A stretch of 64,000 nucleotides of DNA from a virus (lineage: Duplodnaviria > Heunggongvirae > Uroviricota > Caudoviricetes), in IMG/VR virus record IMGVR_UViG_2925908680_000001. One strand, given 5' to 3'. The translations under genes were made by a program, and so were the position numbers. Positions within the stretch are counted from its first letter, which is position 1. Each line of letters begins with the position of its first letter. Positions 20,306 through 41,451 of this stretch are shown in pieces. The notes under the pieces were generated by a model. That model searched no databases. It saw only the letters and a program-made list of their open reading frames with translations, and was not told the DNA's origin.

Positions 20306-20909
20306 TTTTCTAACATTTTAAGTTGAATTGTAAATTTCTCCGATGTACATTCACTACCGATTGGCACACCGGTCAACTTTTTGAGACAAACTGTTTAGTT
20401 TTTCGTATTATTGCCGCCGCTATACCTATGGCGGTGCAATATAGGTGGCTGAAAAGCCCCCGTTGACTCACGGTGTTCCAGCCTTTATTGCGCCGCCACC
20501 AGACCGTGGAACAGTCGATGGCGGCTCCGAAAGCAAGGAGTCACCACACTATGAACAGCTACTGTCTTTTCCCATCACTCGTTGTCCGCCACTCACGCGA
20601 TAATCTGCATTCTTTACTCGCGCTGGGGGTGTCAAAATGACCGTTCGCTACCTCAACTTTCAAATCCAGAACATCACTGGCGGTTGCTATGACTGGTTTG
20701 TCACTCTCGGAAAAGAAGTGATCACCGGGAAGCTGGATGAAGTGAAAGCTAAAGCAATGGCCTACGCCTGCAAGCAAGCCCGGAAGAAATCCGCCAAAGC
20801 ATAAAATACTGACTGTTGCGCCCTGGCATTATCGTGGGGTATATTTCTACGGCACCTTAGAAAAACGGGTGCCGGGATTGGAACCCCGGATAATGCAAAA
20901 GGCGACACA

Positions 20910-20931
20910 GACGCCGAAAGCGTCTTTTTTT
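20910..20931 (+). terminator. rho-independent terminator
   Basis: gacgc-cgaaa-gcgtc hairpin followed by a run of seven T. Confidence 0.55.
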
Positions 20932-21116
20932 GTGTCATGCCATCGCACAGCCATACGTAGCGTTTAGCTCAGAGATCAATGGTAGTGCTGGCTGGGCTGC
21001 CGAAAGGCAGGCCGGTTCCCTTTTGCGCCGGTAGTTCCAACCCAGTCAGTGCTACCGCCATTGAGATTGGAACCTCACGCGGTAGCTCCTTAAATTAGCA
21101 AAAGGAGGCTGCCAAT

Positions 21117-21332
21117 ATGGCTACTATCCCTACCCCAACTCATTCTGAATTTATCTGGCGTTTCTATTCCTGCCAAAAACACCTGTATATCTGCGTCATG
21201 GCTGCTACCGAAGCAGAAGCTCGTTCATACCTTCCTGAAGAACCCTGCATTTTTGCCGCACGCTTCACTCTTGATGCGATGGAGATCCTAAATTACTGGA
21301 ATCTGCCAATGAACTGCGTGGAGGTGCACTGA
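21117..21332 (+). CDS. Icd-like small protein (immI-like module 1)
   Basis: 71-aa ORF whose TGA stop overlaps the ATG of the downstream antirepressor (TGATG), the arrangement of P1 icd-ant. Confidence 0.5.
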   Translation: MATIPTPTHSEFIWRFYSCQKHLYICVMAATEAEARSYLPEEPCIFAARFTLDAMEILNYWNLPMNCVEVH

Positions 21333-22273
21333 TGAATCTGTCCATCTCTCAAAAAGCGACAATGACCAGTATTGAGATCGCGGAACTGGTAGGTAAGCGT
21401 CATGATAATGTGAAGCGTACCATTGAAGTATTAACTAAAGGTGGTGTCATTCAATTTCCTCAAATTGAGGAAATTGAAAATAAACAATCAGTTGGCCCTC
21501 GTCGATTTTCCAAGGCTTACATATTTGAAGGCGAACAAGGAAAACGAGACAGCATCATTGTCGTCGCGCAGCTCTCTCCGGAATTCACCGCCCGGCTGGT
21601 GGACCGCTGGCGCGAACTGGAGAATGCCCGGGTACAGTTAAAATCAAAAGCCGAAATTCTGGCTGAAATGGCGCAAATGCATCTTGAGCATGAACGCCGG
21701 ATCAACGCCGTAAATGCCCAGGTAGCCGAGGTATCAGCACAAGTATCGATGGTCGCTGAAACACTCGAGCAAATCAAGAAAGGCAATATTCCGGAAGGCT
21801 ACATTGGCTACCGCCAGCTGGCGGCGAAATGTGGCCTGACTGAAGCCAAATGTCGCAACCTGGTTAACGCTTTCCGGATTCCCACCGATACGCATGAGTT
21901 TTTAACTCCAGATGGTTTGCTTGCGCGACGCTCCATTGTGGCCCTGGTCCCCTTCCGGAAAGCCTTTAAGCAGGTGATGTCGGAGGCAGAACCACGCAAT
22001 AAACGCTGGTATCATCCAAAGATGGGGATGTTTCAGGCAATCCACCATCCTGTGCCTGAAAGCCCAAAGGATAATCTGTCACTACATACCGTCAGAGAGA
22101 AGATCAGGACTGGATACGCAACAGTGTGTCGTCGTTCTTCCTGGCCTGAAGGTATATGGGTGTGGCCCGAAGGTGGATCACGAAAGCACTGGCGCACCAT
22201 CCGTGACGGGAAAATCCATGCTATTGATTTAGCTCCAGAGGATGTTATTGCTATGGACTGGATTGTTAGTTAA
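21332..22273 (+). CDS. ant: antirepressor Ant (copy 1)
   Basis: N-terminal phage regulatory (pRha-type) domain; P1 Ant-like context. Confidence 0.75.
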   Translation: MNLSISQKATMTSIEIAELVGKRHDNVKRTIEVLTKGGVIQFPQIEEIENKQSVGPRRFSKAYIFEGEQGKRDSIIVVAQLSPEFTARLVDRWRELENARVQLKSKAEILAEMAQMHLEHERRINAVNAQVAEVSAQVSMVAETLEQIKKGNIPEGYIGYRQLAAKCGLTEAKCRNLVNAFRIPTDTHEFLTPDGLLARRSIVALVPFRKAFKQVMSEAEPRNKRWYHPKMGMFQAIHHPVPESPKDNLSLHTVREKIRTGYATVCRRSSWPEGIWVWPEGGSRKHWRTIRDGKIHAIDLAPEDVIAMDWIVS

Positions 22274-39343: not shown

Positions 39344-39503
39344 TTACTCCCCTTGTTTAGTGCCAGAGGACACGCCAGTGCTGTTAAACAAGTATCCGAC
39401 ATACGCTGAACAGTTATTCAGCACGATCGACGAATGCAACCAACGAAACGCACTGAATAACCAAAGAAACAGGGAGATTTGGGAAGGGGACAGGCGGCAG
39501 TGA
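39177..39503 (+). CDS. o-spanin lipoprotein (Rz1-like), overlapping the Rz frame
   Basis: Lipobox LSGC after a signal peptide; +1-frame gene overlapping the 3' end of Rz. Confidence 0.55.
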   Translation: MKSLALKIRCAVLGLTMCVYLMTLSGCSGNGQKPSTSVPVKITVEATSKPQANLIDYSPCLVPEDTPVLLNKYPTYAEQLFSTIDECNQRNALNNQRNREIWEGDRRQ

Positions 39504-39869
39504 GCTTCACAAAAGCTACATAATTATTTTGCGTTAGAAAAATAATTTGAATTTTCGAACATAAATAATAAAATAAATCATCAAAAATTTGATGTTGATC
39601 TTCCATGTTTTCAGGCTTATATTCACGCCGTCGTAGCAAATTCTGCGACCGGGTTTAGCAGCCTGAATGATTGTGCGGACAACCGCAGATTTCCGATATT
39701 GCGGTATTTTTGTGTCCGTAAACCGCGTTACGCCCGAATTATGGTGGGGCGTGATGGGGAGGCTTCGGCCTGCTGGTTTCACAATCGCCAGTCTGCTAAC
39801 CCCGTCACGTCCTGCCACCCGTTTAGCAGCGGGTAGCAGGTTGTTAAACCTGATTGTGAGGCCGTAACT

Positions 39870-40085
39870 ATGGTTAATGCCAATCCTTGCCCTCGCCCGG
39901 AATTTATCTGGCGCTTTTATTCCTGCACAAAACACACCTACATCAGCGTAATGGCAGCTACTGAGGCTGAAGCGCGTTCATTTCTTCCTACAGATCCGTG
40001 CATTTTTGCCGCTCGCTTTAAACCCGATGCTCTGGACGTTTTGACCTACTGGAACCGCCCAATGAACTGCGTGGAGGTGCACTGA
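39870..40085 (+). CDS. Icd-like small protein (immI-like module 2)
   Basis: Paralog of the 21117-21332 product; stop overlaps the ant start. Confidence 0.5.
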   Translation: MVNANPCPRPEFIWRFYSCTKHTYISVMAATEAEARSFLPTDPCIFAARFKPDALDVLTYWNRPMNCVEVH

Positions 40086-41011
40086 TGAATCTGTCCATCT
40101 CTCAAAAAGTGACAATGACAAGTATTGAGATCGCGGAGCTGGTGGGAAGTCGTCATGACAAGGTGAAACAATCTATTGAACGACTGGCGGGACGAGGTGT
40201 AATAGCTTTTCCCCCAATGGGGGAGAAGCCCACCGCAGGCCGCCCGGCGAGCTATTACGTCTTTGAAGGCGAGCAAGGCAAGCGCGACAGCATTGTTGTC
40301 GTCGCACAGCTTTCTCCCGAATTTACCGCCCGACTGGTGGACCGCTGGCGCGAACTGGAGAGTGCCAAAGTACAGTTAAAATCAAAGGCCGAAATCCTGG
40401 CCGAAATGGCGCAAATGCATCTTGAGCATGAACGCCGGATCAACGCCGTAAATGCCCAGGTAGCCGAGGTATCAGCACAAGTGTCCAGGGTCACTGAAAC
40501 ACTTGAGCAGATCAAGAAAGGCAATATTCCGGAAGGCTACATTGGCTACCGCCAGCTGGCGGCGAAATGTGGCCTGACTGAAGCCAAATGTCGCAACCTG
40601 GTTAACGCTTTCCGGATTCCCACCGATACGCATGAGTTTTTAACTCCAGATGGTTTGCTTGCGCGACGCTCCATTGTGGCCCTGGCCCCCTTCCGGAAAG
40701 CCTTTAAGCAGGTGATGTCGGAGGCAGAACCACGCAATAAACGCTGGTATCATCCAAAGATGGGGATGTTTCAGGCAATCCACCATCCTGTGCCTGAAAG
40801 CCCAAAGGATAATCTGTCACTACATACCGTCAGAGAGAAGATCAGGACTGGATACGCAACAGTGTGTCGTCGTTCTTCCTGGCCTGAAGGTATATGGGTG
40901 TGGCCCGAAGGTGGATCACGAAAGCACTGGCGCACTATCCGAGATGGGAAAATCCATGCTATTGATTTAGCTCCAGAGGATATTGTTGCTACGGACTGGA
41001 TTGTTAGTTAA
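40085..41011 (+). CDS. ant: antirepressor Ant (copy 2)
   Basis: C-terminal roughly 250 aa nearly identical to copy 1; N-terminal roughly 60 aa divergent. Confidence 0.75.
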   Translation: MNLSISQKVTMTSIEIAELVGSRHDKVKQSIERLAGRGVIAFPPMGEKPTAGRPASYYVFEGEQGKRDSIVVVAQLSPEFTARLVDRWRELESAKVQLKSKAEILAEMAQMHLEHERRINAVNAQVAEVSAQVSRVTETLEQIKKGNIPEGYIGYRQLAAKCGLTEAKCRNLVNAFRIPTDTHEFLTPDGLLARRSIVALAPFRKAFKQVMSEAEPRNKRWYHPKMGMFQAIHHPVPESPKDNLSLHTVREKIRTGYATVCRRSSWPEGIWVWPEGGSRKHWRTIRDGKIHAIDLAPEDIVATDWIVS

Positions 41012-41019
41012 TTACTGTT

Positions 41020-41043
41020 GCCCCGGCCAGGCCGGGGCTTTCG
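41020..41043 (+). terminator. hairpin terminator after ant copy 2
   Basis: gccccggcc-ag-gccggggc followed by tttcg. Confidence 0.5.
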
Positions 41044-41046
41044 TGA

Positions 41047-41451
41047 CTAAAAATCTGTTCGCTGTCGCCATGCGTTTTTTAACTCAGGAATATCCGCCAT
41101 TTCAATTAACTTGCGAAGTCCAGCACTGACTTTCCCATTGCCAACCATAGCAAGCCAATCTCTTACTGCTTTCGGCATGTAGAGCGTTGCAGTTACCGGC
41201 TCTTCAACCCTGGCAGGACATCCGCATACAGGCCATTTAATTGATTCCATAACTTCGGATGCCGGGGTGAGGGCGGGGACATTGAGTATATCTCTACCAG
41301 AAAACTGGATAACGATCCGTTCAGCGAGCGAGAGTATCTCACTTTCGGCAAGAATTGATGCCAACTGCGCCTCAACAAGAAAGCGACTTGTTGTGTTCAG
41401 AGAGTGGCTCTTAGCGCCATTTTTATACGAAACAAAGATTCGATACGCCAT
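41047..41451 (-). CDS. hypothetical protein, 134 aa
   Basis: ORF only. Confidence 0.5.
   Translation of the reverse strand: MAYRIFVSYKNGAKSHSLNTTSRFLVEAQLASILAESEILSLAERIVIQFSGRDILNVPALTPASEVMESIKWPVCGCPARVEEPVTATLYMPKAVRDWLAMVGNGKVSAGLRKLIEMADIPELKNAWRQRTDF

Follow-up and report, generated by a model that had tools for sequence, protein, structure and literature searches.

Modules and genomic setting

The window analyzed here, the whole 64 000-nt stretch of a Caudoviricetes genome (IMG/VR record IMGVR_UViG_2925908680_000001), contains two modules, each consisting of a leader, an icd-like gene, and a larger antirepressor-type gene (Table 1). Both 71-aa icd-like ORFs pass the NCBIfam model phage_ICD_like (cut-off 25 bits) and align with Icd of phages P1 and P7, the gene 1 product being 56% identical to P1 Icd within the alignment. 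Each overlaps a downstream ORF of 313 (module 1) or 308 codons (module 2) by one base (TGATG). The two larger products are 89% identical and diverge only in their first ~60 residues; they carry a Rha-type N-terminal domain (Pfam Phage_pRha for antirepressor 1, 37.3 bits versus 29.9) and fall within phrog_63, 'anti-repressor Ant' (E ~1e-61; 2e-61 for antirepressor 1). The ant label given to them in the initial annotation holds insofar as an antirepressor-type ORF overlaps each icd, and fails as a statement of kinship with P1: BLASTP detected no homology between these Rha/phrog_63-type proteins and P1 Ant1/2 (E = 0.2 for Ant1). They are positional analogues of P1 Ant, not homologues, and 'antirepressor' is used here as an annotation-level and positional label for putative proteins assumed to target a repressor. 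Alignment to phage D6 (99% identity) places a C1-type prophage repressor gene near the window start (~865–1902, − strand), and its product is the presumed antirepressor target.

Over most of its length, the window is 90–99% identical to D6 in reverse orientation. Module 1 is syntenic with D6 orf83/orf82, and D6 likewise has an isrK, C4, icd, and ant module adjoining ref; in the D6 record the isrK and C4 elements are unannotated and a minus-strand 'orf84' is drawn across them. Module 2 (~39489–41062) is an insertion relative to D6, which has no module at this capsid-linked site. The insertion lies between the capsid gene and upfB-like genes. A repL-linked module of D6 falls beyond the window end, so the element may hold a third C4 module there. 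For a D6-like prophage, a paper from 2019 had already described a second region of antisense RNA and icd (PMC6799933). The D6 RefSeq record (L005, NC_050154, 7700–7850; L001, 3163–3462) annotates tRNA genes on the plus strand that covariance models place on the minus strand.

The promoter proposed for module 1 was read from the sequence; its −35/−10 geometry is kept in relatives with otherwise divergent upstream regions, and it scores below the strict promoter-scan threshold. No C1 operator (Op51) with a promoter under C1 control was found ahead of the constitutive promoter in either module, and neither the P1 C1 operator ATTGCTCTAATAAATTT nor a guessed D6-type operator ATTGCTGAAATTTTTAG matched the window with up to three mismatches. 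Given the absence of a P1-type C1 operator upstream of both modules, transcriptional control differs from that of P1. Several P1-like isrK-type loci (L044, L051, L083, and others) carry a C1-operator-like ATTTGCTCTAATAAATTGTG ~110 nt upstream of isrK, which is absent in the D6-like window. A 55-aa ORF (20637–20804, phrog_7786) abuts the module 1 promoter.

Table 1. Parts of the two modules; positions are counted from the first base of the window.
Feature	Positions	Strand	Basis
Module 1: predicted sigma-70 promoter (TTGCGC, 18-nt spacer, TATATT; start ~20852)	20816–20845	+	Read from sequence
Module 1: isrK-like 5' element (hairpin 1, hairpin 2 with a1 in loop, b1 linker, intrinsic terminator)	20852–20930	+	RF01394, 62.5 bits (gathering 50)
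Module 1: a1 target site TTGGAAC	20878–20884	+	Perfect complement of a'; co-varies with a' in 32 leaders
Module 1: b1 target site GCAAAAGG	20895–20902	+	Perfect complement of b'; co-varies with b'
Module 1: intrinsic terminator of isrK-like element (AGACGCC GAAAG GCGTCT + T7)	20909–20932	+	Terminator scan; isrK-model terminator hairpin
Module 1: C4 antisense RNA copy 1	20975–21062	+	RF01695, 76.7 bits, E = 3e-13, model positions 1–87 of 87
Module 1: b' recognition element CCUUUUGC, loop of C4-1 hairpin 2	21019–21026	+	Complementarity, covariation, fold
Module 1: a' recognition element GUUCCAA, single-stranded linker of C4-1	21034–21040	+	Complementarity, covariation, fold
Module 1: a2 target site TTGGAAC, small-hairpin loop	21067–21073	+	Complementarity, covariation, predicted fold
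Module 1: b2 target site GCAAAAGG (21098–21105) overlapping Shine-Dalgarno AAGGAGG (21102–21108)	21098–21108	+	Sequence, complementarity, covariation
Module 1: icd-like gene 1, 71 aa	21117–21332	+	NF033153, 49.4 bits
Module 1: Rha/Ant-type putative antirepressor 1, 313 aa; start overlaps icd stop	21332–22273	+	Pfam Phage_pRha; phrog_63
Module 2: promoter (TTGATC, 17-nt spacer, TATATT), aligned with P1 promoter P1c4 (former P51b)	39595–39623	+	Promoter scan; alignment with P1 leader
Module 2: a1/b1 leader element, including weak terminator-like hairpin and U-run	39617–39711	+	RF03163 (39617–39669), 54.4 bits (gathering 46.7); sub-threshold isrK (39630–39711)
Module 2: a1 target site TTAGCAG (P7 type)	39655–39661	+	Alignment with P1/P7, complementarity, triplet matching
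Module 2: b1 target site GATTGTG (P7 type)	39669–39675	+	Alignment with P1/P7, complementarity, triplet matching
Module 2: C4 antisense RNA copy 2	39737–39822	+	RF01695, 70.5 bits, E = 1e-11, model positions 1–87 of 87; exact P7 c4 match
Module 2: b' recognition element UCACAAUC of C4-2	39779–39786	+	Complementarity, triplet matching
Module 2: a' recognition element CUGCUAA of C4-2	39793–39799	+	Complementarity, triplet matching
Module 2: a2 target site TTAGCAG	39823–39829	+	Complementarity, triplet matching
Module 2: b2 target site GATTGTGA (39852–39859) overlapping Shine-Dalgarno GAGG (39858–39861)	39852–39861	+	Sequence, complementarity, triplet matching
Module 2: icd-like gene 2, 71 aa; P1/P7-like 5' end, copy-1-like 3' end	39870–40085	+	NF033153, 46 bits; BLAST breakpoints
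Module 2: Rha/Ant-type putative antirepressor 2, 308 aa	40085–41011	+	89% identical to antirepressor 1; phrog_63

C4 RNAs and their recognition sites

The initial annotation had proposed c4-like antisense RNAs in both leaders and named covariance models, folding, and target complementarity as ways to check this; all three bear the proposal out. Scanned against Rfam 15 at gathering thresholds, the whole window yielded four matches, all on the + strand and all within the two leaders: a full-length C4 (RF01695, gathering score 45) in each, an isrK element (RF01394) in module 1, and a c4-a1b1 element (RF03163, 'a1, b1 targets of C4') in module 2. Both C4s are more stable than shuffled sequences (z = −5.5 for copy 1 and −5.0 for copy 2; 0/200 shuffles as stable), and this stability is strand-specific, the reverse strands not being unusually stable (z = −1.4 and −2.0). 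The minimum free energy folds (−46.4 kcal/mol for copy 1) reproduce the family model, a long outer stem around two hairpins and a single-stranded linker. GC content is 54–55% in the leaders and 59–60% in the C4s, versus 47% in the window. Over 39743–39819, copy 2 matches the annotated mature c4 RNA of P7 at every position (77/77), and the mature copy 1 RNA probably spans ~20980–21058. Elsewhere, near isrK/C4 loci, matches to sRNA-Xcc1 (RF02221) lie upstream of antirepressor-type genes (L169, 2215–2298; L178, 4740–4824); this family has a C4-like architecture with an outer stem, two inner hairpins, and a 3' CACCC.

The leaders were also described as GC-rich, structured, and equipped with a strong RBS ahead of both icd-like genes, which is what we find, except that the copy 1 unit begins upstream of 20950. 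In module 1, the Shine-Dalgarno sequence ends 8 nt before the icd-like ATG. Its surroundings (21062–21113) are predicted to form a local hairpin, GGUAGCUCCUU / AAGGAG-GCUGCC, with half of b2 in the loop, a kissing-loop-like presentation. Their description as non-coding stands in the sense that, in the ORF list, each icd-like ORF is preceded by roughly 250–270 nt without credible coding potential; mechanical ORFs do occur, such as one of 39 aa (20979–21098) that opens at the conserved C4 AUGG. We consider it very improbable that this small ORF is translated and controls icd/ant. Most isrK-type leaders keep it open, it stops 18 nt short of the icd ATG, and PGAP calls it 'ash family protein' in plasmid p702_18_3; its Gifsy-1 equivalent was named 'orf45', and start-codon mutations of orf45 lower activation there (PMC4825925). 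Yet orf45 is conserved in nucleotides, not in amino acids, according to a review (PMC12197685), and the length of the ORF varies from 14 aa in P1 to 28–47 aa elsewhere, or ends in an in-frame fusion to the next gene in Stx phages. The peptide changes non-conservatively exactly at the compensatory changes of the RNA stems, and no protein family is matched. On these grounds (no family match, and neither length nor peptide of the AUGG ORF conserved), a protein-coding reading of the leaders was rejected.

Read as C4 antisense RNAs, both transcripts are perfectly complementary, through a 7-nt a and an 8-nt b element, to a2/b2 sites downstream and a1/b1 sites upstream in their own module. The recognition codes are TTGGAAC/GCAAAAGG in module 1 and TTAGCAG/GATTGTG, the P7 code, in module 2, whereas the ref-linked a site of D6 reads TTGAGAC. 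Copy 2 aligns base for base with the P1/P7 leader, and all four P7-type sites fall at the positions annotated in P1, whose RefSeq record lists a1, b1, c4, a2, and b2. The element CCUUUGAC is a natural variant of the module 1 b' element CCUUUUGC.

For covariation analysis, 80 viral contigs encoding relatives of copy-1 Icd were reduced to 32 distinct leaders and aligned. Standard pairs filled 98.8% of cells for a1:a' plus b1:b', 99.2% for a':a2 plus b':b2, and 99.8% for the C4 stems, percentages that are somewhat inflated by counting inherited changes and by deriving the structure from the window sequence; sliding the partner by 1–3 columns lowered site pairing to 25–58%. Changes on both sides occurred at 7/15 positions in each interaction, and compensatory (double) changes at 13/27 stem pairs. 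A stronger argument for pairing than these percentages is the existence of several independent code types. On near-identical backbones, the a-site triplets switch together among TTGGAAC, TTGAGAC, TTGGCCT/TTGGTCT, and TTGGCGT, and the b-site triplets among GCAAAAGG, GTCAAAGG, GTCTAAGG, and ACTCAAG, with a types and b types assorting independently and combinatorially across the 32 leaders. The P1/P7-type family comprises two a-types and four b-types, with all three sites agreeing in every case, and copy 2 has the common P7a/P7b combination. Overall, at least five a-types and at least five b-types were counted. Two Stx phages differ solely in the a triplet (TTAGGAC versus TTGCTAC), and among distant loci the cognate target set scored best for 14/15 C4s.

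Three loci depart from this pattern. In an IMG/VR contig of the leader alignment (L039), a1 is TTGAGAC and unmatched, while a' and a2 are of the TTGGAAC type. This leader is probably a recombinant, and its unmatched a1 indicates that a1 pairing is not strictly required. Pairing at b is imperfect in L199, and a2/b2 are absent within 80 nt in L181.

The initial annotation had also guessed that the two leaders differ in specificity, which the data support: the codes differ at 4/7 a positions and at most of the 8 b positions, more than P1 differs from P7, and cognate energies exceed cross energies. RNAcofold of C4 with its targets gave ΔΔG ~0, as the algorithm cannot form loop–loop (kissing) contacts, and duplex energies of the short elements were therefore used. 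These ranged from −8.5 to −12.4 kcal/mol for cognate pairs and mostly from −0.5 to −5.6 kcal/mol for cross pairs. The exception is a 5-bp GAUUG/CAAUC overlap between b' of C4-2 and the flank of the module 1 a site, which at −7.1 kcal/mol means that complete orthogonality is not proven. Judging from these sequences, the two switches should not cross-regulate. Across the window, adjacent a and b sites pairing with C4 were found only in the two leaders.

BLAST breakpoints show that module 2 is a mosaic, in which a P7-like leader with the icd 5' end (39610–39979, 91%) gives way to an icd 3' end and ant resembling copy 1 (39900–41041, 88%). A patchwork of this kind, inserted relative to D6 and lacking both the P1 C1 operator and an upstream promoter, could be a non-functional relic of recombination. 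We regard this as quite improbable, since all six recognition sites, the P1c4-aligned promoter, the Shine-Dalgarno sequence, and both ORFs are intact. The capsid-linked site is also occupied by a module in about a dozen D6-like plasmids. One of the closest D6-like plasmid prophages (named as pYU39_89 and p702_18_3), the complete plasmid p702_18_3 (NZ_CP074704.1, loci L165/L166), carries three C4–icd–ant modules in ref-linked, capsid-linked, and repL-linked positions, with three different codes (TTGGAAC/GTCAAAGG, TTAGCAG/GTACATG, and TTGACAG/GTTAGTG). Its capsid-linked module differs from that of the window in having b = GTACATG and an ORF6N-type ant N-terminus. The occupancy of the site and this coherent exchange of the b triplet argue for selection on the capsid-linked module.

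IsrK-type elements and related switches

The a1/b1 elements of the two modules match different Rfam families, and we consider isrK (RF01394) and c4-a1b1 (RF03163) to be one element class, as judged from reciprocal model matches. The isrK model aligns over its full length with the P7-type leader of module 2 (45.5 bits, E = 3e-9) and the c4-a1b1 model matches the copy-1 leader (22.4 bits, E = 8e-4), both below threshold, and a Klebsiella phage locus (L168, 1170–1258) passes both thresholds on the same bases. Rfam assigns c4-a1b1 to clan CL00128 and isrK to none, and a 2025 review still separates IsrK and c4 (PMC12197685). In the Klebsiella phage and in gammaproteobacterial genomes (12/12), C4 lies downstream of isrK in the same orientation. 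These genomes came from a scan of genome contigs with a rigid isrK hairpin pattern, which gave many chance matches in unrelated phyla and 12 usable gammaproteobacterial loci; the Salmonella (Gifsy-1) match was absent from that scan. At least eight P1-like viral contigs carry an isrK-type and an a1b1-type module together.

The Gifsy-1 locus resembles module 1 in the order of its parts: an isrK-family RNA ending in a terminator, then a C4-type RNA, then an antirepressor-type gene (anrP). There, the short terminated IsrK activates translation of its own read-through isrK–orf45–anrP mRNA >100-fold and triggers prophage induction, and a processed ~80-nt RNA downstream, STnc1160, is complementary to IsrK (PMC4825925), as are the corresponding RNAs of module 1 to each other. 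Gifsy-1 is also the sole system with experimental support for this activation by the short RNA and for its binding of Hfq (PMC4825925). Mutations reveal helix-like behaviour of IsrK G28/G31 with the partner positions C162/C159 (PMC4825925). Unlike module 1, Gifsy-1 has no icd-like ORF, and the structured RNA there is overlapped by 'orf45'. Its authors propose a structural switch acting in cis and trans and do not invoke P1 c4; our comparison is with the paper's account of the locus (PMC4825925). Based on the Rfam consensus and the numbering in the paper, G28/G31 and C162/C159 would correspond to a1 and a', and by its coordinates STnc1160/orf45 would be a C4 RNA. Most simply, the two systems would be reconciled if IsrK-type RNAs served as a1/b1 decoys titrating C4.

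Applied to the window, the Gifsy-1 model would have the unprocessed leader silence itself through a1/b1–a'/b' pairing and the IsrK-like RNA act as an activator in trans, C4 being no repressor. Module 1 has the bona fide isrK match and terminator that this would need, its icd Shine-Dalgarno sequence lies in a predicted local hairpin as in the Gifsy-1 structure, and in Gifsy-1 itself the G28/G31–C162/C159 helix was attributed to cis pairing and IsrK activated at least 100-fold in trans (PMC4825925). A switch built on a1/b1 only does not, however, require a2/b2, which co-vary with a'/b' as tightly as a1/b1 do. The b2 site overlaps the Shine-Dalgarno sequence in both modules. Copy 2 is the c4 of P7, an RNA known to repress in trans, and Gifsy-1 too yields the processed STnc1160 (PMC4825925). 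We therefore hold a purely cis-acting switch to be unlikely. The cis switch and the trans-acting C4 are in any case largely compatible, the decoy acting on the repressor.

Phage P4 immunity offers a further comparison, in that the processed CI RNA has matched up- and downstream sites (seqA and seqC) in the same transcript; it differs in acting by premature transcription termination of replication genes, as described in the Gifsy-1 paper (PMC4825925). A P4-type action, with C4 pairing mainly causing premature termination, would suit the terminator between a1/b1 and C4 in module 1 and the description of IsrK by the Gifsy-1 authors as a structural homologue of seqA (PMC4825925). Co-expressed STnc1160 nevertheless did not act as a termination factor in Gifsy-1 (PMC4825925). 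The downstream site of both modules, unlike that of P4, covers the Shine-Dalgarno sequence of the antirepressor operon: b2 overlaps that of the first ORF here and in nearly all relatives, the hallmark of control at translation. The effect on ant transcription in P1 is a consequence of blocked translation, which also counts against termination as the main action. Taken together, a P4-type mechanism is improbable for the window, and repression of translation by C4 remains the preferred reading.

Proposed mechanism and implications

With high confidence, we conclude that each leader specifies a C4 antisense RNA of the P1 type whose targets lie in its own icd/antirepressor operon, and that the P1/P7 mechanism best explains both modules, given the identity of copy 2 to P7 c4 and the full structural and site equivalence of copy 1. 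The same confidence applies to the explanation as a whole, in which the window comes from a D6-like plasmid prophage related to P1 and its two immI-type RNA switches are independent. Membership in the RNA families, folding, the complementarity and covariation of the sites, and gene content are observed or computed.

C4 of P1 prevents translation of icd, on which ant expression relies, and has no direct action on ant. This refines the statement in the initial annotation that c4 represses ant translation. The c4 RNA of P1/P7 is processed to ~77 nt by RNase P, and Rho-dependent polarity operates in P1. Both the processing of c4 to 77 bases and the need for translated icd in ant expression are attributed to studies by Citron and Schuster, Biere et al., and Heinrich et al. 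By homology with P1/P7, one promoter per module would give a leader transcript with the a1/b1 element, a ~77–80-nt C4, a2/b2, the icd-like ORF, and the overlapping antirepressor-type ORF, from which C4 would be cut to act in trans. Its b' (loop) and a' (linker) would pair with b2 and a2 and so block ribosome binding at icd. The translationally coupled antirepressor would thereby stay silent, both in the lysogen and on incoming phages with the same code, and with two unrelated codes the antirepressors of two immunity types would be kept off. Judged by analogy to IsrK of Gifsy-1, the short terminated IsrK-type RNA of module 1 is a probable decoy that would titrate C4 and switch the antirepressor on. 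That C4 is processed, represses in trans, and is orthogonal in vivo, and that the IsrK-type RNA is a decoy, is inferred; for processing, the identity of copy 2 with the mature P7 RNA gives indirect support, and repression in trans is predicted from the site energies.

Both modules share with P1/P7 immI the order of promoter, a1/b1, C4, a2/b2 over the RBS, icd, and overlapping antirepressor gene, as well as the two-element recognition code; the C4 of copy 2 and all its sites are identical to those of P7. By contrast, P1 has one module instead of two, a C1 operator that the window modules lack, and Ant1/2 proteins unrelated to the Rha/phrog_63-type antirepressors. Copy 2 also does not adjoin kilA–repL, as immI does, but lies at the capsid-linked site.

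As a finding, this is a phage immunity switch of a well-known kind, correct but ordinary and already noticed in this phage group, and it does not overturn current understanding. What is added here is a precise map, the two distinct codes (one of them P7), the covariation set, the unification of isrK and c4-a1b1 in one class, and the mosaic origin of copy 2. For annotation, the RNA genes, target sites, and isrK-type element should be entered in D6-like plasmid prophages in place of spurious ORFs such as D6 orf84 and the PGAP 'ash family protein'.

We tentatively suggest, as a possibility well short of even odds, that D6-/P1-like phage-plasmids carry arrays of up to three orthogonal C4 switches with a combinatorial code and built-in IsrK-type decoys, which would unify P1, P4, and Gifsy-1. 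If so, stacked codes would enable a resident prophage to switch off antirepressors belonging to several heteroimmune relatives, an arms race of diversification fought over 15 nucleotides, and the read-through ratio at the IsrK-type terminator would set the induction threshold. The literatures on P1 c4/a1b1, P4 CI/seqA, and Gifsy-1 IsrK/STnc1160 would then describe one mechanism. The natural triple-covariation set also provides a design table for orthogonal RNA repressors. The 15-nt code predicts mutual antirepressor immunity among P1/P7/D6-like phage-plasmids, and since these elements are frequent carriers of resistance genes in E. coli and Salmonella, it would predict their coexistence or mutual induction.
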